Below are positions 40,486-47,739 of a DNA stretch of 64,000 nt, in pieces. The position numbers were made by a program, and so were the translations under genes. The stretch lies in the NCBI GenBank assembly GCA_963758295.1, contig CAVWUU010000004.1, positions 768,001 to 832,000 of the forward strand, read 5' to 3'. A model generated the notes under the pieces. That model made no database searches. It saw only the letters and a list, made by a program, of their open reading frames with translations, and was not told where the DNA came from. Origin of the DNA: Candidatus Eremiobacteria bacterium. GTDB taxonomy: Bacteria; Vulcanimicrobiota; Vulcanimicrobiia; Vulcanimicrobiales; Vulcanimicrobiaceae. Position 1 is the stretch's first letter, and every line of letters starts with the position of its first letter.

Positions 40486-41133
40486 CTACTGAAACTCGAA
40501 CTCCGCGAGGTTCTTTTCGATCTTCCGCTTCACGCGCTGCAGAGCGTTGTCGATCGACTTCACGTGACGGCCGAGGTCACGAGCCATCTCCTGGTAGCTC
40601 TTGCCCTCGAGGTAGGACTCAAGCACCTGCGATTCCAGCTCGGAAAGATTTTGGCGAATGCGCTGCCGGATGTCGTCGGAGACTTCCTGCGTTACGACCA
40701 GTTCCTCGGGATCCGAGGTTTTCTGCGACGCCATAACGTCGAGCAGCGTACGTTCGCTGTCCTCGTCGTAAATCGGCTTGTTCAGCGAGATGTACTGGTT
40801 GAGCGGAATGTGCTTCTGACGCGTCGCGGTCTTGATGGCCGTGATGATCTGGCGCGTGATACATAACTCCGCGAACGCGCGAAAACTCGAAAGCTTGTCC
40901 GCTTTGAAGTCGCGCACGGCTTTATAGAGGCCGATCATACCTTCTTGGATGATGTCCTCGCGGTCCGCACCGATCAGGAAGTAACTCTTGGCTTTGATCC
41001 GGACGAAATTTTTGTATTTGTTCAGGAGATACTCCATCGCCAGGTTGTCGCCCGATTTCGCGATGGCAACGAGATCTTCGTCCGCCCGCTCGTTGTACTC
41101 CAAACCATCCGAAACGGGATGGGTCATAGCCAT
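40486..41133 (-). CDS. sigH: RNA polymerase sigma factor SigH
   Basis: YFLIGADREDIIQEGMIGLYKA, RQKHIPLN, KSIDNALQRVKRK. Confidence 0.95.
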   Translation of the reverse strand: MAMTHPVSDGLEYNERADEDLVAIAKSGDNLAMEYLLNKYKNFVRIKAKSYFLIGADREDIIQEGMIGLYKAVRDFKADKLSSFRAFAELCITRQIITAIKTATRQKHIPLNQYISLNKPIYDEDSERTLLDVMASQKTSDPEELVVTQEVSDDIRQRIRQNLSELESQVLESYLEGKSYQEMARDLGRHVKSIDNALQRVKRKIEKNLAEFEFQ

Positions 41134-41211
41134 AGTATTTTGTAAGCCTCGTGGTGTCGATACGCCGAAAAAACGCAGGCCGTAGCCCGTCGAACGCGGC
41201 ACATCCACGCA

Positions 41212-41240
41212 ATTATAGGAGGGGGTCCTCCTCCCGTCAA
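41212..41240 (-). promoter_or_regulatory. Sigma70 promoter of sigH
   Basis: TTGACG-N17-TATAAT; spacer contains a GGAGG/CCTCC inverted repeat. Confidence 0.75.
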
Positions 41241-41315
41241 GCGTATTCCGCGGAGGCTTTTTGCTAAGCTAGCAGTTCGAATTTGGGCCAAGCTGCTGAG
41301 GAAGCAGTGCCCTGC

Positions 41316-42167
41316 TTAGCCGGAGACCCGGGCGGCCTCACGTTGCCGGAGCACTTCATACAGTAGGACGCCGGCAGCCACGGAAGCGTTGAGCGATTCG
41401 GTCTTGCCCCGCATTGGGACGCTGACCAGGTAATCGCACTCGCGACGGACCAGCTGCGCCAGCCCTTCGCCTTCAGCGCCAATAACCAAAGCCAGATCCC
41501 GGTCGAAATCGGCTTCGCCCATGGGCACGGACCCTTCTCCGGCATCGGCGCCCGCGATCCAGATTCCGGCCTTCTTTAGGGTTCGGATCGTTTCGTTAAT
41601 GTTGGACACCCGCACGACCGGGAGGTACGTTGCCGCGCCCGCGGCGGCTTTCCGGACGGTGGCATTCACGCCGGCGGAGCGCCGCTCAGGAAGGACGACT
41701 GCCGTGGCGCCCGAGCACTCAGCCGTGCGGATGATTGCACCTACGTTGTGCGGATCGGTGAGGTGGTCAAGGAGCACGAAGAGCGCCGGAGAGGTCCCGC
41801 GTTCCCTCAGGACCTCGTTTAGGTCGGCGTATTGGAACGGCGGCGCCATGGCGACGACGCCCTGATGCGTTTTGAACGGAAGCTGCGTGAAGAATCCACG
41901 ATCCTCGAAACGCACGGGGATGTTGCGTTCTTTCGCATCGGCGATGATCTTGCGCAGCAGCGGATCGCGTTTGCGTTCGTCGGATACGTGAATGCCGCGC
42001 AACGGTTCGTCCGCATTGAGCGCTTCTTCCACGACGTGAATGCCGTACATCACGTCATCGAAATCGAGTTTTGGTTTCGGCCGGCGCGGCGCACCGCCGC
42101 CGAACTTCGGCTTCGGTCTGCCGCCTTTCGGCTGATCGCTCGACCGATCTACGCGACGACGGTCCAA
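41316..42167 (-). CDS. rlmB: 23S rRNA Gm2251 methyltransferase
   Basis: HQGVVA, DPHNVGAIIRTA, IGAEGEG, SLNASVA; TTG start after AAGGGG. Confidence 0.93.
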   Translation of the reverse strand: MDRRRVDRSSDQPKGGRPKPKFGGGAPRRPKPKLDFDDVMYGIHVVEEALNADEPLRGIHVSDERKRDPLLRKIIADAKERNIPVRFEDRGFFTQLPFKTHQGVVAMAPPFQYADLNEVLRERGTSPALFVLLDHLTDPHNVGAIIRTAECSGATAVVLPERRSAGVNATVRKAAAGAATYLPVVRVSNINETIRTLKKAGIWIAGADAGEGSVPMGEADFDRDLALVIGAEGEGLAQLVRRECDYLVSVPMRGKTESLNASVAAGVLLYEVLRQREAARVSG

Positions 42168-42562
42168 GTGGTCCCCTTTCCCCAAAGTGCTTTGCACTTC
42201 GGGGACCCCAGAGCTTTAACAGCACTGCGCGCTTCGCGCTGCGCGCCCCCACGGGCAAAGCCCGCGGGTCCCCACTTCACGACAAGACGGTCCAAGTGGT
42301 CCCCTTTCCCCAAAGTGCTTTGCACTTCGGGGACCCCAGAGCTTTAACAGCACTGCGCGCTTCGCGCTGCGCGCCCCCACGGGCAAAGCCCGCGGGTCCC
42401 CACTTCACGACAAGACGGTCCAAGTGGTCCCCCTTTCCCCAAAGTGCTTTGCACTTCGGGGACCCCAGAGCTTTAACAGCACTGCGCGCTTCGCGCTGCG
42501 CGCCCCCACGGGCAAAGCCCGCGGGTCCCCACTTCACGACAAGACGGTCCAAGAGGTCCCTT
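42158..42562. repeat. Three tandem copies of a 128/128/129-bp palindromic unit plus partial fourth boundary
   Basis: gacggtccaag units start at 42158, 42286, 42414, 42543; identical apart from one C in a homopolymer. Confidence 0.95.
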
Positions 42563-43979
42563 CCTTTGAGTCTTTGATGGCGATGCCGCAGCGCATGAGG
42601 GCGTCGCGGAGGCGGTCGGAGGCGGCGAAATCTTTGCGCTCGCGCGCTTCACGCCGCACGTTGATGACGTTTTCGAGGGCTTGTTCGGGCGTTTCGCCGT
42701 TGAACGGAATTTCCGTGCCGAGTTCGGCGCGTAAGCGCTCCAGCAAATCGACCGGCAACAGGGCTTCGGCTTCTTTAAGCCACTCTTCGTTCGGTTCGAG
42801 TCCGAGCAGCCACAGCGCGCGTTCGAATTCGCAACGGCCGCCGGCGTTCTCCACAACCGCCCATTGAAGCAGTTCAGCGAGCGCAACCGACGTATTCATA
42901 TCGTCGCTCAACGCAGCTTCCATCTTTGGCAGCAGTGTTTGCTCGTCGCGCTTCGGCAGCACCGGATCGAACGGAACGAGACGCCGGTACGTCTTCTTCA
43001 ACCGATCCAGCGTCATCATCGATGCCGCAAGCGACTCGTCGGTAAAGTTCATTACCTTGCTGTAGCCCGTCGATAAAAACGTCAAGCGAATCGCCTGCGG
43101 GTCGTGCCGCGCAACCAAGTCCGAAAGCGGCTCGAAATTGCCCAGCGATTTGGACATCTTGCGTCCGTCGAAATTTAGCAAACCGCCGTGAACCCAGAAG
43201 TTCGCCATTGGCGGATGACCCATGAGCGGCTCGCTTTGCGCGATTTCATTTTCATGGTGCGGAAAGATCAAATCCGCGCCGCCGCCGTGGATATCGAATC
43301 CCATGCCGTCGGGGTCGAGCAATGTTTTAGACATTGCCGAGCACTCGATATGCCAGCCGGGGCGTCCTTCGCCATATCCCTCAAACGTCCAGAACGGCTC
43401 ACCGGGTTTGGCAAATTTCCACAGGGCAAAATCGAGGGGGTTTTCTTTATGCTCGTCGACTTCGATGCGCGCGCCCGCTTCGAGCTCTTCGATGTTGCGA
43501 TTGCTCAGCTTCCCGTAAGCCGGAAACGTGCTGACGCGATAATAGATGCCGTCTTGCGAAACGTAGGCGTGTCCGCACTTTAGCAGCTCGAGGATCATCG
43601 CTTGAATCTGTGCGATGTACTTTGTTGCGTACGGTTCGACGTCGGGGTCGCGAACGCTGAGTTTCTTCATCGAAGCTTTGAAGCTGCGATAAAAACCCAT
43701 GACTATTTCGTGCCAGTCTTCGCCGGTTTCGCGCGCGCGGTTGATGCTGCGATCGTCGATGTCGGTAACATTCTGAACGTAGGTTACGTCGTAACCGCTA
43801 TGTTCCAGAAACCGGCGCAGCAGGTCGAAAAACAAGAACGAACGCGCGTGGCCCAAATGCGCTTCAGCCGACGGCGTGAGCCCGCAAACGTAAATACGAA
43901 CGTCCCGGCCGCGCAGCGGCTTGAACGTCTCGGTCTTCCGGGTGCGAGTGTTGTAGAGTCTTAAATCACCCACGACCAC
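42534..43979 (-). CDS. cysS: Cysteine-tRNA ligase
   Basis: YVCG, HLGH, GRPGWHIECSAM, KMSKS, DDMNT. Confidence 0.97.
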   Translation of the reverse strand: MVVGDLRLYNTRTRKTETFKPLRGRDVRIYVCGLTPSAEAHLGHARSFLFFDLLRRFLEHSGYDVTYVQNVTDIDDRSINRARETGEDWHEIVMGFYRSFKASMKKLSVRDPDVEPYATKYIAQIQAMILELLKCGHAYVSQDGIYYRVSTFPAYGKLSNRNIEELEAGARIEVDEHKENPLDFALWKFAKPGEPFWTFEGYGEGRPGWHIECSAMSKTLLDPDGMGFDIHGGGADLIFPHHENEIAQSEPLMGHPPMANFWVHGGLLNFDGRKMSKSLGNFEPLSDLVARHDPQAIRLTFLSTGYSKVMNFTDESLAASMMTLDRLKKTYRRLVPFDPVLPKRDEQTLLPKMEAALSDDMNTSVALAELLQWAVVENAGGRCEFERALWLLGLEPNEEWLKEAEALLPVDLLERLRAELGTEIPFNGETPEQALENVINVRREARERKDFAASDRLRDALMRCGIAIKDSKEGTSWTVLS

Positions 43980-44671
43980 GCTTCTTCGCTCTGGTCGGGT
44001 TCAATTTCAGCAAGGCGGTTTTCCATGTCATCTAAGCGGCGCTGCAATTGCCGGATCGCGTCGGCATTGGGATCTGGCAGATCGACCTGCGGACGGTCGG
44101 GCACGACCCGTACCGGCTTCCCGTCTTGCGCGACAACGTGCGCCGGAATTCCGACGACGGTTGCGTTGGGCGGCACGTCGCGAACGACCACCGAACCGCC
44201 GCCGACCTTCGCGGAATCACCCACGTAGATTGCGCCGAGTACCGCGGCGTTCACGCCCACGGTCACATTCTTCCCCAGAGTCGGATGACGTTTGCCGTGC
44301 GACAGACTCGTGCCGCCTAGGGTGACGCCCTGGTAAATCGTGCAGCCGTCGCCGACTTCGGCCGTCTCACCGATGACAACCCCCATGCCATGATCGATGA
44401 AGACGTTTTGTCCGATCTTTGCGCCCGGATGGATTTCGATGCCGGTCAAAAAACGCGCGATGTGCGAAAACCACCGCGGCAAGATCGGCACGCCCATGCC
44501 GTGCAATGCATGGTTGAACCGGTAGGCGGTAATCGCGTGAAAACCCGGATACGACAAGACGACGTCGAGCCAGCCGCGTACGGCGGGATCCCGCTGAAGC
44601 GGGACCCGCAGGTCGTTCATAAACGTCTGCAGCGGCGTGGGCATGTCGTTTAGTTTAACCGTTAAAGTCAA
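43961..44671 (-). CDS. cysE: Serine O-acetyltransferase
   Basis: RDPA, TGIEIHPGA, FIDHGMGVVIGET, KRHPT; start could be 44644. Confidence 0.95.
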   Translation of the reverse strand: MTLTVKLNDMPTPLQTFMNDLRVPLQRDPAVRGWLDVVLSYPGFHAITAYRFNHALHGMGVPILPRWFSHIARFLTGIEIHPGAKIGQNVFIDHGMGVVIGETAEVGDGCTIYQGVTLGGTSLSHGKRHPTLGKNVTVGVNAAVLGAIYVGDSAKVGGGSVVVRDVPPNATVVGIPAHVVAQDGKPVRVVPDRPQVDLPDPNADAIRQLQRRLDDMENRLAEIEPDQSEEAWSWVI

Positions 44672-45228
44672 GGCTTGGTTGAGTCAGGTGGTGTCGATTT
44701 GATGGGCTCGAAGGGCTTGCCGTCGGGACCGTACCGGATCGGTTCGAGCCCACGTCCATGCAAAAGCCGCGAATTTACGGCCCCAATTCGCATCAGCATG
44801 CGGTCGTGCCCGAGCAAGGGGAAAAGCAACTCCAAGGGCGGTCCCTCTTTCTGCCCCGTCAACGCCATGCGGGCGGCCGCCTTTGCATCGGCCGGGTCGA
44901 TGCCAAATTCTGCGCCGATGACCGGGATATCATGCTCTAGGGGCAGCCCGCGCAACTCTGGCTGCGAATCGACGTATTGACCGACGGCATCCAAGAAAAA
45001 CAAGACCTGCCGCGTTCGCAGCCGCTCGAGTTCAAGCGCCGGAATAACGCACGCTTCGGCGCGTAACGCTGCAACCGGCGCGAACGCGTCGTCGGTCGTT
45101 TGCAATTCCTTGCCGTACGCTTCGAGAAACGTGTCGATCCAGCGAAGTGCGGCGTTCGGAGCGGGATCCTCGAGAAATCCCCATCGTTGCATCGCCGTCA
45201 TGAGTTGCGCGTTGCTGACTTGTGCCAT
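44668..45228 (-). CDS. Stand-alone protein resembling the GluRS C-terminal anticodon-binding domain
   Basis: ARMALTGQKEGPPLELLFPLLGHDRMLMRI matches the GluRS C-terminal pattern; no HIGH/KMSKS; gltX position. Confidence 0.7.
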   Translation of the reverse strand: MAQVSNAQLMTAMQRWGFLEDPAPNAALRWIDTFLEAYGKELQTTDDAFAPVAALRAEACVIPALELERLRTRQVLFFLDAVGQYVDSQPELRGLPLEHDIPVIGAEFGIDPADAKAAARMALTGQKEGPPLELLFPLLGHDRMLMRIGAVNSRLLHGRGLEPIRYGPDGKPFEPIKSTPPDSTKP

Positions 45229-45233
45229 GGCCC

Positions 45234-45707
45234 CTACCGTTCGATGGCGGCAACCGCGTAGGCCGCAATGCCGCTCCCATCGCCCGTATACCCCATGCCT
45301 TCGCTGGTCTTCGCTTTGACGCTCACATCTTCGAGCCCGAGCCCAAGGCGGCGCGCCACGTTCTCGCGCATCGCCGCGATAAAGGGTGCGAGTTTCGGAC
45401 GGTCCACAACAATCGTCGCATCGATGTTGCCGATGCGATATCCCGCTTCACGAAGTTTGAATGCGCACGCTTCCAAGAGCCCCATGGAATCGGCGTCTTT
45501 CCACTGCGGGTCGTTATCGGGAAAATGCGCGCCTAAATCGCCGAGCGCCGCCGCTCCGAGCAACGCGTCGGAAATCGCGTGCGCCACAACGTCGGCATCC
45601 GAGTGTCCCAGTGCGCCGCGTTCGAAGGGAATTTCGATGCCGCCGAGCACCAGCCGCCGCCCTTGGACAAGACGGTGCGCATCAAAACCGTGCCCGAATC
45701 GCGTCAT
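45234..45707 (-). CDS. ispF: MECDP synthase
   Basis: GHGFDAH, GHSDADV, VKAKTSE. Confidence 0.96.
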   Translation of the reverse strand: MTRFGHGFDAHRLVQGRRLVLGGIEIPFERGALGHSDADVVAHAISDALLGAAALGDLGAHFPDNDPQWKDADSMGLLEACAFKLREAGYRIGNIDATIVVDRPKLAPFIAAMRENVARRLGLGLEDVSVKAKTSEGMGYTGDGSGIAAYAVAAIER

Positions 45708-46663
45708 TCGCGCACGCCCGCGTTTTCATCCCGGCCGGCATAGTGTGAAAATCGCGTTGCGAAAGTTGCGGTGCCGTCGGCGAACGCCTCGAACCGCGCC
45801 GTGAAACCGCGCAGCCGTTCCGACGGAATAAATGCGCGCACCCCAACGCCTTGCGGAAGATCGCGTTCGACGCCGTCGATTCGCGCACCGCGCGATTCGA
45901 GTTCCGTTCGAATGGCTTCCACCAATGCGTCGTCGGCGAAGACTTCGATAAAGAGCACTTCTTCTTCCGACGGCGAGTGCTCCATCCGTTCGCGTAAGAG
46001 CGCTTCGGCGCGCGCGACGTCTTCGGGATTCGTCACCTTGAAGTTCTCCGCTCCCGCGGGCACGACAACGACCTCGATTCCAAGTTGCTCGAGAAGCGCT
46101 GCGTCGTCGGTTGCGTCGACGCCGTTCTTCTGCGCTTGCGCGTGCGCGCGCACCAGATCGTTACGCATTGCAAACTGTGGCGTTTGCGCCGCCCAGAGCT
46201 CCCCGCGCGCGAGCGTTTGGCGCACCGTCATCGTTGCGGCATCGACGCGTTTGATCGTGTCGACGACCGGCGCGGCGAGCACGGCGGCGCGATTGCGCGA
46301 AACCGCATTCATGCCGGAACGCACGTCATGCGCACGAACGAGCGGACGCGCCCCGTCATGCACGAACACCGCATTACAACGCGACGAAAGGCCCAACAGC
46401 GCTTTGTGCGCGCTCTGCTGCCGCGTCTCGCCGCCCGCAACTACTCTCACGGGCTGATGCGGCGCGAGTTGTGCTGCGAGCATTTGCATCGGCTCGATCC
46501 ACTCGTCTTCGGTCGCGATCGCGATTTCTTCGACTTCCGGCATCGCGCCGAAGGTGCGTAACGACCAACCGACGAGTGGCAAGCCCGCTACTTCGACGAA
46601 TTGCTTCGGCCGGCCGAAACGCGTTCCACGGCCCGCTGCAACGATAAGAGCACCCCAGATCAT
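45704..46663 (-). CDS. ispD: MEP cytidylyltransferase with extra C-terminal domain
   Basis: AAGRGTRFG..KQF, HDGARP, AQTPQ, TDDA, NFKVT; about 95 extra C-terminal residues. Confidence 0.93.
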   Translation of the reverse strand: MIWGALIVAAGRGTRFGRPKQFVEVAGLPLVGWSLRTFGAMPEVEEIAIATEDEWIEPMQMLAAQLAPHQPVRVVAGGETRQQSAHKALLGLSSRCNAVFVHDGARPLVRAHDVRSGMNAVSRNRAAVLAAPVVDTIKRVDAATMTVRQTLARGELWAAQTPQFAMRNDLVRAHAQAQKNGVDATDDAALLEQLGIEVVVVPAGAENFKVTNPEDVARAEALLRERMEHSPSEEEVLFIEVFADDALVEAIRTELESRGARIDGVERDLPQGVGVRAFIPSERLRGFTARFEAFADGTATFATRFSHYAGRDENAGVRE

Positions 46664-47739
46664 CCGGCTTTATAACTTCCTTTGGGTTTGGCGAAGATCA
46701 AGCGTCCCGCGACGGTTTGCAGCACGCTCGTGACGATGACGTCGGTTGCTTCGCCGATGAGGCGGCGTCCTTGCTCGACGACAATCATCGTTCCGTCCTC
46801 GAGATAGCCCACGCCTTGGTGCGGTTCTTTGCCTTCGCGAATGACCTGCACGTGCAGTTCTTCTCCGGGAAGGACGACGGGCTTCACCGCATTTGCGAGC
46901 TCGTTAATATTCAGCACGGCCACACCTTCGACGTGCGCCACCCGATTGAGGTTATAGTCGTTCGTAACCAACCGGCCTTCGAGCTCCTGCGCCAGGCGCA
47001 CGAGTTTCTGATCGACGCTTCCGGCCGGCAAATCGTCGTAATCGCGTTCGTTGATGTCCAACGATGCGAGTTCTTGGAGGCGAGCCAACACGTCCAAGCC
47101 GCGGCGGCCGCGCGTGCGCTTGATCGGATCCAGCGAATCCGCAATCGCGTGCAGTTCGCGCAACACGAAGCGCGGCACCACTAGCGGGCCCTCGAGAAAG
47201 CCGCTTTGCACGATCTCTACGATGCGACCGTCCACAATTACGGAAGTGTCGACGATCTTGTGCGATCCGCTTGCCACGCCGTTGCGGCTCTTCGAAAACG
47301 GCAGGACCTGCGTCTTTGCGCCGACGCGCGCCCCAAGGTACGCGAAGAAAACGGCGACGATGAAGTAGAGCACGATCGCGACGTAACTTCCTGTGCGTCC
47401 GGCAATGGCACTGAACTCGAAGAGAATCGATTTGATGAGCAGCGCGATGCCGAGGCCCAAAATCAGGCCGATGGCGCCGCCGGCTATCTCCGCGGGCGCA
47501 AGCCGTTCGATCGCCCCTTCGGCGAGATTGAGCTCGTCTTCAAAAAAGCTCTGCGCGAGCGGCGCGACCAGCACGCCGATCACCGCGCCGATTACGGGAG
47601 CGAGAATCAGGAATGCCAACTGCAGGCCTTCGCTGGAAAAGTGCAGCGAGAGCACGTTCAAGTACATCTCGCGGCCCAGCAAAAAACCCGTGATGGCAAA
47701 GACGACGGCGAAAACGGCGCGCAGCACTGCGCCCGACAA
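46660..47739 (-). CDS. Membrane PIN/TRAM domain protein (YacL-like)
   Basis: Four TM helices, DTSVIVDGRI, RGRRGLD, TNDYNL, GYLEDGTMIVVE. Confidence 0.92.
   Translation of the reverse strand: MSGAVLRAVFAVVFAITGFLLGREMYLNVLSLHFSSEGLQLAFLILAPVIGAVIGVLVAPLAQSFFEDELNLAEGAIERLAPAEIAGGAIGLILGLGIALLIKSILFEFSAIAGRTGSYVAIVLYFIVAVFFAYLGARVGAKTQVLPFSKSRNGVASGSHKIVDTSVIVDGRIVEIVQSGFLEGPLVVPRFVLRELHAIADSLDPIKRTRGRRGLDVLARLQELASLDINERDYDDLPAGSVDQKLVRLAQELEGRLVTNDYNLNRVAHVEGVAVLNINELANAVKPVVLPGEELHVQVIREGKEPHQGVGYLEDGTMIVVEQGRRLIGEATDVIVTSVLQTVAGRLIFAKPKGSYKAG

Follow-up and report, generated by a model that had tools for sequence, protein, structure and literature searches.

A stand-alone GluRS anticodon-binding domain in the gltX position between ispF and cysE of a Candidatus Eremiobacteria genome

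Background

What remains of a glutamyl-tRNA synthetase (GluRS) gene, and to what end, once the half that carries catalysis is gone? The question is raised by a stretch of 64,000 nucleotides (nt) from a Candidatus Eremiobacteria bacterium (NCBI GenBank assembly GCA_963758295.1, contig CAVWUU010000004.1, positions 768,001 to 832,000 of the forward strand), here called the window, in which a gene of 186 codons lies between ispF and cysE in the position of gltX. An initial annotation, made from the sequence alone, had described this gene as a stand-alone anticodon-binding domain (ABD) of GluRS, the mirror image of the catalytic-only GluQ, and had proposed that it is either a subunit of a split GluRS or a repurposed tRNA-binding factor. 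Free-standing pieces of aminoacyl-tRNA synthetases (aaRSs), such as GluQ, YbaK, AlaX, Trbp111 and HisZ, have repeatedly been a source of new biology.

Results and discussion

Identity of the encoded protein

The open reading frame (ORF) was intact, with an ATG start and no internal stops, and it was packed between its neighbors as tightly as first noted: its start lies 5 nt from the ispF stop, and its stop overlaps the longest cysE frame (that with the earliest possible start) by 4 nt. PF19269 (Anticodon_2) was the only Pfam family matched, at 24.0 bits, a narrow margin over the cut-off of 23.6, with amino acids (aa) 28-149 aligned to model positions 13-138 of 141; relatives of the protein scored 26.8-32.5 bits against this family. 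The NCBIfam gltX model, TIGR00464, gave 15.7 bits (cut-off 290) and was aligned at model positions 348-464 only. The lack of a catalytic domain, remarked on at the outset, was borne out, as no catalytic-domain family was matched in the ORF; with no match to PF00749, the protein does not qualify as a functional glutamate--tRNA ligase (EC 6.1.1.17). The C-terminal GluRS pattern that had been pointed out was correct in content, but its spacings were one to two residues off; the block actually runs TG-x3-GP, with five residues before LLG and six before RI. The tail quoted in the initial annotation, HGRGLEPIRYGPDGKPFEPI, was exact letter by letter.

A family profile (A1) built from 45 members of the ABD family matched GluRS chains in the Protein Data Bank (PDB; best 8jpv, E = 5e-7), with residues 390-465 of Thermus thermophilus GluRS aligned to profile positions 75-150. 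The AlphaFold2 (AF2) model of the protein, with a predicted local distance difference test (pLDDT) of 93.4 and a predicted template modeling score (pTM) of 0.87, comprised eight helices and, after them, a short tail that resembles a hairpin. When this model was searched against the PDB by using Foldseek, ranks 1-40 (E up to 0.4) were all GluRS, and VIA-align placed 25 GluRS entries at Z 8.4-15.6, a class I LysRS at Z 8.5 and unrelated rows at ≤ 3.2. The best VIA-align match was 2cfo_A, whose residues 322-485 were placed on model residues 1-159 (Z 15.6, root-mean-square deviation 2.6 Å, 156 aligned). The protein thus covers GluRS domains 4-5, from the first through the last helix, plus about 30 residues, and the structural comparison suggested by the initial annotation agreed with its proposal, as did the likeness to an inverted GluQ when taken as architecture (ABD kept, catalysis gone). 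The ORF is a complete GluRS anticodon-binding domain with a 30-aa tail; it belongs with the GluRS ABDs and is neither a GluRS nor a split GluRS. Its identity and its descent from the GluRS that once occupied the same slot are held with high confidence.

Occurrence in databases and related genomes

Homologs of similar length formed 1092 protein clusters at E ≤ 1e-3. Among the matches listed (120), identities were 72-90% and lengths 175-202 aa, and the named sources were Candidatus Baltobacteraceae, Aquilonibacter or Eremiobacterota; public labels read 'hypothetical protein', 'Anticodon binding domain' or 'glutamyl/glutaminyl-tRNA synthetase'. Only 49 matches at E ≤ 1e-3 were obtained with HMMER when 1.84 billion representatives were searched without an index, and the ESM Atlas gave only clusters of the ABD family itself; the family is restricted to this lineage. 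Across the phylum, an ABD match was obtained in 75 of 201 genomes. In the window's family 65 of 113 genomes were matched, namely all 63 outside genera g4 and g25, 2 of the 44 in g4 and none of the 6 in g25 (genome tallies take in the unpublished G128 and G178).

The slot that holds an ABD alone in the window contains a full-length GluRS in G168, G151, G055, G193, G170, G137, G089 and G077, which confirmed that the gene occupies the place of gltX. In the sister-family genomes G151 and G055, in genus g28 (G193, G170 and G137) and in G077, this enzyme is intact, with canonical HIGH and KMSKS motifs, and ends in a divergent ABD that has no tail. Intact GluRS is also present in G089 and G156, there joined to an ABD of the new type (61-67% identity to the window's protein) and to the same tail; the fused gene of G089 lies between ispF and cysE, and that of G156 directly upstream of cysE-cysS, with an upstream flank in which ispF was not matched. 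The sister-family genome G168 carries the tail on an ABD of 45% identity. Fused forms in genus g2 lose their motifs stepwise, from HVGA and KLSKR (G121) and HVGS and KLSRQ (G053 and G198) to KLSSA (G099), a vanished KMSKS (G117) and the absence of both motifs (G127).

The ABD stands alone in 54 family genomes, including the window's own, of which 36 were examined at locus level and 18 were inferred from open frames of < 300 aa. At locus level 34 of the 36 copies were intact, the remaining two being frameshifted (G196) and without the tail (G063). A gap of 18-712 bp separates ispF from the downstream cysE in five genomes of g4 and g25 that have no ABD, and no significant ABD remnant was found in it (best E 0.014). 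Clean loss of the gene was recorded in 42 of 44 g4 genomes and in all 6 of g25. In genus g2 the ABD gene has been separated from ispDF and still lies beside cysS or cysE-cysS. Its upstream neighbor in the rearranged loci of g2 and G130 is a divergently oriented gene for a large AAA_16/TPR protein; as hints to function, the new neighbors in rearranged loci (AAA_16/TPR, ribose-5-phosphate isomerase (RpiA), an EamA transporter and a GntR-aminotransferase only) were uninformative.

Database proteins of > 326 aa that carry the new ABD numbered 162, of which 121 were aligned. HxGG and KxSK were kept in 15 of these, both motifs were lost in 41, and 27 had HxGx and KxSx; a further 15 had HxGx with KMSKS lost, eight were otherwise mixed and 15 were N-terminally incomplete. 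For 39 fused forms in which both motifs were lost, 14 invariant columns were counted in aa 1-262 versus 70 in aa 263-444. The eroded catalytic part was modeled with block pLDDT values of 87-97 over residues 1-310 of the fused protein, and the motif-less fused relatives are, by structure prediction, folded pseudo-GluRSs, some of which are annotated as 'glutamate--tRNA ligase family protein'. A Rossmann-type domain plus ABD was predicted for P0123 and 38 similar proteins (alignment A3) at a mean pLDDT of 89.

Selection on the domain and its tail

Values of dN/dS were calculated by the Nei-Gojobori method for 11 genome pairs, several of which had dS > 1.5 and were near saturation. The ABD gave 0.032-0.089 in nine of the 11 pairs and 0.17 and 0.25 in the other two; ispF gave 0.028-0.206 (9 pairs) and cysE 0.030-0.231 (10 pairs). 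Among 13 genomes with both proteins, the stand-alone ABD had a mean pairwise identity of 66.9%, compared with 55.6% for the ABD and 74.0% for the catalytic domain of the working GluRS described below. The ABD and its tail are under strong purifying selection, so the protein has a function that does without aminoacylation, and the gene is among the best conserved of its block. A chance ORF is ruled out by the 1092 clusters of similar length together with a dN/dS far below 1, and a pseudogene was rejected on the low dN/dS and the intactness of 34 of 36 stand-alone copies. Of the two observations that the initial annotation had named as telling against it, a full gltX at this position was indeed found in some relatives, whereas decay of the ORF was not, the gene being strongly conserved.

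In all eight pairs of fused g2 forms, omega was higher for the catalytic part (0.33-0.68) than for the ABD (0.23-0.45). For the intact pair G089/G156, omega was equal in the two parts (0.17 and 0.19).

Phylogeny and loss of catalysis

The 49 ABD rows used for a maximum-likelihood tree, which was rooted on g28, exclude the frameshifted G196 and also G077, in which tblastn gave no ABD match. New-type rows formed one clade (100/100) on a long branch of 1.02 substitutions per site, with the intact fused proteins of G089 and G156 in an unresolved position at its base. At least two changes to the stand-alone state are required on this tree, one for a clade of 33 and one for G165 and G011, which fall inside the fused clade of g2. 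From this topology it follows that the remodeling of the ABD and the gain of the tail go back to the enzyme stage, and that catalysis was lost later and more than once. As reconstructed from the tree and the motifs, the catalytic domain was lost at least two times independently, by way of catalytically eroded fused intermediates, in Baltobacteraceae that have a noncanonical GluRS. A GluRS as the ancestral resident of the slot agrees with the presumably Bacillus-like gene order of the block.

The working GluRS and its arrival

The window's genome, 82% complete, holds one full-length GluRS with its own ABD on another contig (C2:155687-157201; TIGR00464, 428 bits), so the initial question of whether the other gltX is full-length could be answered in the affirmative. 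A PF00749 search of this 82%-complete genome gave one significant match, which lies inside that enzyme, and found no second catalytic domain or catalytic-only GluRS gene; most family genomes that are ≥ 90% complete also have a single PF00749 match. With no second catalytic domain in the genome, the ORF is not half of a split enzyme, and this part of the original proposal had to be abandoned.

P. aeruginosa GluRS was the best PDB match of the working enzyme (5tgt/8vc5, E = 4.7e-183), which has a Lys-rich C-terminal extension of the SKKxxxxWKK type. The genome holds gatB as well as genes for tRNA-Gln (CTG, TTG) and tRNA-Glu (TTC, CTC); GlnRS was searched for in the genome and not found, so that the working GluRS operates with GatCAB. 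According to excerpts of PMC12088422, the noncanonical P. aeruginosa GluRS is dimeric, each ABD reading the tRNA on the other protomer, and Chlamydiia, which have no GlnRS, rely on its subfamily for their only GluRS; these excerpts name Chlamydiia, proteobacteria, Holophagae and Ca. Uabimicrobiia, and do not name Eremiobacterota. When the working GluRS was searched over 131 family genomes, 128 were matched, most at 57-76% identity, and the noncanonical Pseudomonas/Chlamydia type was assigned to about 118 of the 131.

Ten family genomes were without the Pseudomonas-type GluRS (best identity 36-38%): G089, G077, G156, G257, G137, G170, G193, G224, G231 and the unpublished G260. A fused in-slot GluRS was found in 8 of 8 checked among these ten (all of the ten except G260 and G224, which is at a contig edge; motifs were read in all of the eight except G231 and G257), and the same genomes have a second canonical GluRS elsewhere. 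The Pseudomonas-type enzyme was present in all examined genomes whose ABD is stand-alone, eroded or absent, usually as the single PF00749 match. Because intact in-slot enzymes of the family are found only where the noncanonical GluRS is absent, displacement by the acquired noncanonical enzyme is the likely trigger. Ancestors would have had two canonical GluRSs and would then have acquired a noncanonical one (we infer the direction of acquisition), after which one canonical GluRS would have vanished and the in-slot one would have shed its catalysis, keeping the ABD and the tail. The acquired enzyme is now the only GluRS in ABD-bearing genomes with a lost catalytic domain.

Two further observations concern the working enzyme. 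In genus g117 the Pseudomonas-type GluRS is present in two adjacent or separate pieces (G237:C1:484234-485672; two contigs in G264), which could be a frameshift or an assembly break. Co-loss of the Lys-rich extension with the ABD was considered and rejected, as the ABD-bearing G114, G192, G160 and G136 are also without the extension.

Conserved residues and charge

Over 42 new-type rows, 44 of the 186 positions were invariant, including, in the tail, H157, G158, R159, G160, L161, G167, P168, G170, P172 and F173. The tail was modeled at a pLDDT of 74-84 in the protein that stands alone and of 45-49 in the fused protein. The tail is not private to the stand-alone form, for the same tail is found on the intact full-length enzymes of G089, G156 and G168. 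In 45 rows the anticodon block was near-invariant (R120 in 44, T124 in 43, G129 in 44, L132 in 45, R143 in 43 and R147 in 45). This block, R-x-A-L-T-G-x3-x-P-x-L...L-L-G...R, aligns to T. thermophilus GluRS 435-462, which lines the anticodon pocket; the segment in common with residues 435-447 is near-invariant. A newly constrained segment, P63-L97 (P63-A64-L65, L67-E68, L70-R71 and R73 on to L95), lies outside the canonical anticodon block.

The stand-alone ABD is acidic, with a median net charge of -9 and an isoelectric point (pI) of about 5 over 35 rows (-6 and 5.1 for the window's protein); the ABD of the genome's working GluRS has a net charge of +3 and a pI of 9.2. In the column of T. thermophilus T444, Gly was found in 44 of 45 rows of the in-slot lineage, and Ser in the second canonical GluRS of five genomes and in the Pseudomonas-type GluRS. 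This is presumably the column of G417 in Helicobacter pylori GluRS2, an equivalence that was looked for in papers and not found there. The pattern suggests that, in a GluRS1/GluRS2 pair, the in-slot parent enzyme may have been the one that read tRNA(Gln).

Possible functions

A repurposed tRNA-binding factor, the other proposal of the initial annotation, is plausible, and the reading that we prefer, tentatively, is that of a non-catalytic protein that would read tRNA(Gln)-type anticodon loops in trans. The ABD protein would bind the anticodon stem-loop, most likely that of the tRNA(Gln) type (YUG), because Gly stands, in the in-slot lineage, in place of the Thr or Ser of GluRSs that read tRNA(Glu). 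Its role would be that of a non-catalytic tRNA(Gln) handler which, for instance, holds or escorts the tRNA on the indirect route from Glu-tRNA(Gln) to Gln-tRNA(Gln), and the invariant tail would either touch the RNA at a further point or be a peptide on which an ancestral partner docks. Several points weigh against this. H. pylori GluRS2 picks tRNA(Gln) mainly by its acceptor stem, and its ABD is near useless for discrimination according to the authors (PMC2777447). The indirect pathway evidently runs without the ABD, since the gene has been deleted in g4 and g25 and no fully discriminating column was found between the GluRSs of ABD-bearing (n = 17) and ABD-less (n = 12) genomes. Acidity is unusual in a free RNA binder, the constraint on P63-L97 and the tail would suit a new protein interface equally well, and the ABD of the fused-eroded genus g2 has the higher dN/dS given above (0.23-0.45).

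Given that the protein is acidic, the main rival is a protein-binding pseudo-synthetase, in which ABD and tail would form an adaptor or regulatory subunit of an ancestral partner (GatCAB, CysRS/CysE or glutamyl-tRNA reductase, for example), as HisZ does for HisG, with tRNA binding lost or secondary. This is possible, if rather doubtful. The acidic surface fits it, as do the 1.02 substitutions per site on the branch to the new-type ABD, which at that stage was still part of an intact fused enzyme, the position of the newly invariant P63-L95 residues and the tail outside the canonical anticodon block, a tail pLDDT in the fused model as low as expected of a docking peptide, and the persistence of the gene beside cysS or cysE-cysS even apart from ispDF (g2). 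New-type ABD and tail are also older than the arrival of the Pseudomonas-type GluRS (G089 and G156), so any protein partner would be ancestral. However, the near-invariant residues of the anticodon block are needless for a pure protein adaptor, the place beside cysE/cysS is inherited synteny that inertia may have preserved, and the neighbors acquired in rearranged loci give no guidance. It is unlikely that ABD and tail make up an anticodon-reader subunit for tRNA(Gln) whose tail docks to GatCAB or to the acquired dimeric GluRS; if true, this would be a natural heteromeric aaRS or transamidosome, with recognition and catalysis on separate genes of separate origin.

A trans-acting specificity subunit, whereby the free ABD would dock on a catalytic-only or dimeric noncanonical GluRS and present tRNA(Gln), is very unlikely. 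In its favor, a free distal domain reportedly stimulates a C-truncated E. coli GluRS. The ABDs of P. aeruginosa GluRS, which is of the same type as the genome's enzyme, also read across protomers (excerpts of PMC12088422). Yet there is one PF00749 domain in the genome and in most family genomes, the GluRS that contains it has its own ABD, the ABD and tail type is older than the acquired enzyme, the GluRSs of ABD-less genera are indistinguishable, and the Lys-rich extension does not follow the presence of the ABD. We regard as highly improbable a role in RNA regulation, in which the ABD would bind an anticodon-arm mimic in mRNA, such as that of the cysE-cysS operon, and control expression, as ThrRS does with its own mRNA: the coupling to cysE/cysS is tight in nearly all examined ABD loci and the anticodon-block residues are kept, but the intergenic spaces are of few nucleotides, and Rfam gave four tRNAs only in the window, no wider search for a conserved leader having been made. 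That the gene is a functionless relic heading for loss is almost certainly wrong. Deletion in g4 and g25, the frameshifted copy of G196 and the tailless one of G063 would fit such a relic; it is contradicted by the selection data (dN/dS of 0.03-0.09 in most pairs), by the intactness of nearly all stand-alone copies, by the 1092 clusters of similar length and by a conservation that exceeds that of the ABD in the essential GluRS.

Relation to known systems

Trbp111, Arc1p-type proteins and HisZ are aaRS-derived non-catalytic modules for tRNA handling or enzyme regulation, and in this they resemble the ABD protein. These and YqeY have other folds and origins, and none is known to derive from the class Ib GluRS helical ABD. 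The YqeY/GatB-tail domain, as described in excerpts of PMC1865053, is likewise a non-catalytic module of that kind. Closest is the ABD of bacterial GluRS itself (PF19269; Thermosynechococcus ND-GluRS, 2cfo; T. thermophilus, 1gln/1j09), with which the protein shares the whole-domain fold (Z 15.6 and 12.7), the R-x-A-L-T-G...P-x-L...L-L-G...R block and direct descent from a full GluRS at the same locus. It differs in being acidic and without a catalytic domain, in its invariant 30-aa tail and newly invariant P63-L97 segment, and in a sequence similarity that is barely detectable (24 bits). GluQ-RS (YadB), a catalytic-only GluRS paralog that glutamylates the queuosine of tRNA-Asp (excerpts of PMC3927822 and PMC5388404), is also a GluRS reduced to one half and kept as a separate gene, but the half is the opposite one: GluQ keeps catalysis without the ABD, and the ABD protein keeps the ABD without any known catalysis.

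As in the H. pylori-type GluRS2 system, the in-slot ancestor shared a GlnRS-less genome with another canonical GluRS, with Gly in the slot and Ser in the partner, in what is presumably the column of the G417T switch (PMC2777447); GluRS2 differs in being an active enzyme. The free distal domain of E. coli GluRS is likewise a GluRS ABD that reportedly acts as a separate polypeptide (Dubois et al. 2009); it is a laboratory construct that needs a catalytic-only partner, however, and none was found in the window's genome. The noncanonical dimeric GluRS of P. aeruginosa and Chlamydia (excerpts of PMC12088422), whose ABDs act across subunits, is the type that replaced the in-slot GluRS, but it belongs to another lineage (36-38% identity to the in-slot and other canonical enzymes) and is not the parent of the ORF. 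In full-text literature searches, no account was found of a class Ib GluRS anticodon-binding domain that stands free; free-standing anticodon-binding fragments are mentioned in general in one sentence of a review (excerpts of PMC5388404). The ABD protein joins the known class of orphan, free-standing aaRS-domain paralogs, and its GluRS-ABD form is new.

The series from active enzyme through folded pseudo-enzyme and isolated domain to loss is unusually complete within one family, and its likely trigger is visible. It amounts to a clean natural experiment on what a lone anticodon-binding domain can do and on how a two-GluRS solution for tRNA(Gln) is dismantled. Should the ABD protein prove to bind tRNA(Gln) or a component of the transamidosome, indirect Gln-tRNA synthesis would gain a new non-catalytic player; with any other ligand, the protein would be a new pseudo-synthetase.

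Gene neighborhood

The features of the locus are listed in Table 1.

Table 1. Positions in the window of the ABD gene, its parts and the neighboring genes
Feature	Coordinates	Strand	Evidence and remarks
Stand-alone GluRS anticodon-binding-domain gene	44668..45228	-	186 aa + stop; ORF list, PF19269, AF2, GluRS fold matches
ABD core, aa 1-156	44761..45228	-	Eight helices, corresponding to GluRS domains 4 and 5; holds R120-x-A-L-T-G-x3-G129-P-x-L132
Lineage-specific C-terminal tail, aa 157-186 (HGRGLEPIxYGPxGxPF...)	44671..44760	-	Invariant residues
ispF, upstream neighbor	45234..45707	-	PF02542 (YgbB/IspF), 217 bits; 5-nt gap
ispD with EFG_C-like C-terminal extension	45704..46663	-	PF01128, 197 bits; PF00679, 33.4 bits
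PIN+TRAM membrane protein, first gene of conserved block	46660..47739	-	PF01850, PF01938
cysE, downstream neighbor	43961..44671	-	Hexapep and SATase_N Pfam matches
cysS	42534..43979	-	PF01406 (tRNA-synt_1e), 360 bits

The ABD gene is the fourth in a same-strand block, and the PIN+TRAM gene is conserved upstream of ispD in relatives as well. The Rfam scan of the window detected only four tRNAs and no T-box or other leader, and a promoter and terminator scan gave no signal above shuffle level. The whole block (40486-47739) runs PIN/TRAM, ispD, ispF, the ABD gene, cysE, cysS and two further genes, at 41316-42197 and 40486-41208. We take the latter two to be RNA-methyltransferase-like and a sigma factor, respectively, and the block presumably mirrors the yacL-to-sigH gene order of Bacillus.

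The C-terminal extension of ispD (about 95 aa) matches EF-G domain V (PF00679, cut-off 27.9 bits). It was found in G172, G118, G159, G119, G196, G089, G145, G029, G122, G150 and G077, many other relatives being without it, and its presence is independent of that of the ABD. The C-terminus of cysE bears a coiled-coil-like extension of about 40 aa that ends in ...WVI and gives weak Pfam coiled-coil matches. Between cysS and the gene at 41316-42197, a tandem repeat with a unit of 128 bp was located at 42158-42560 (3.1 copies, 98% matches).

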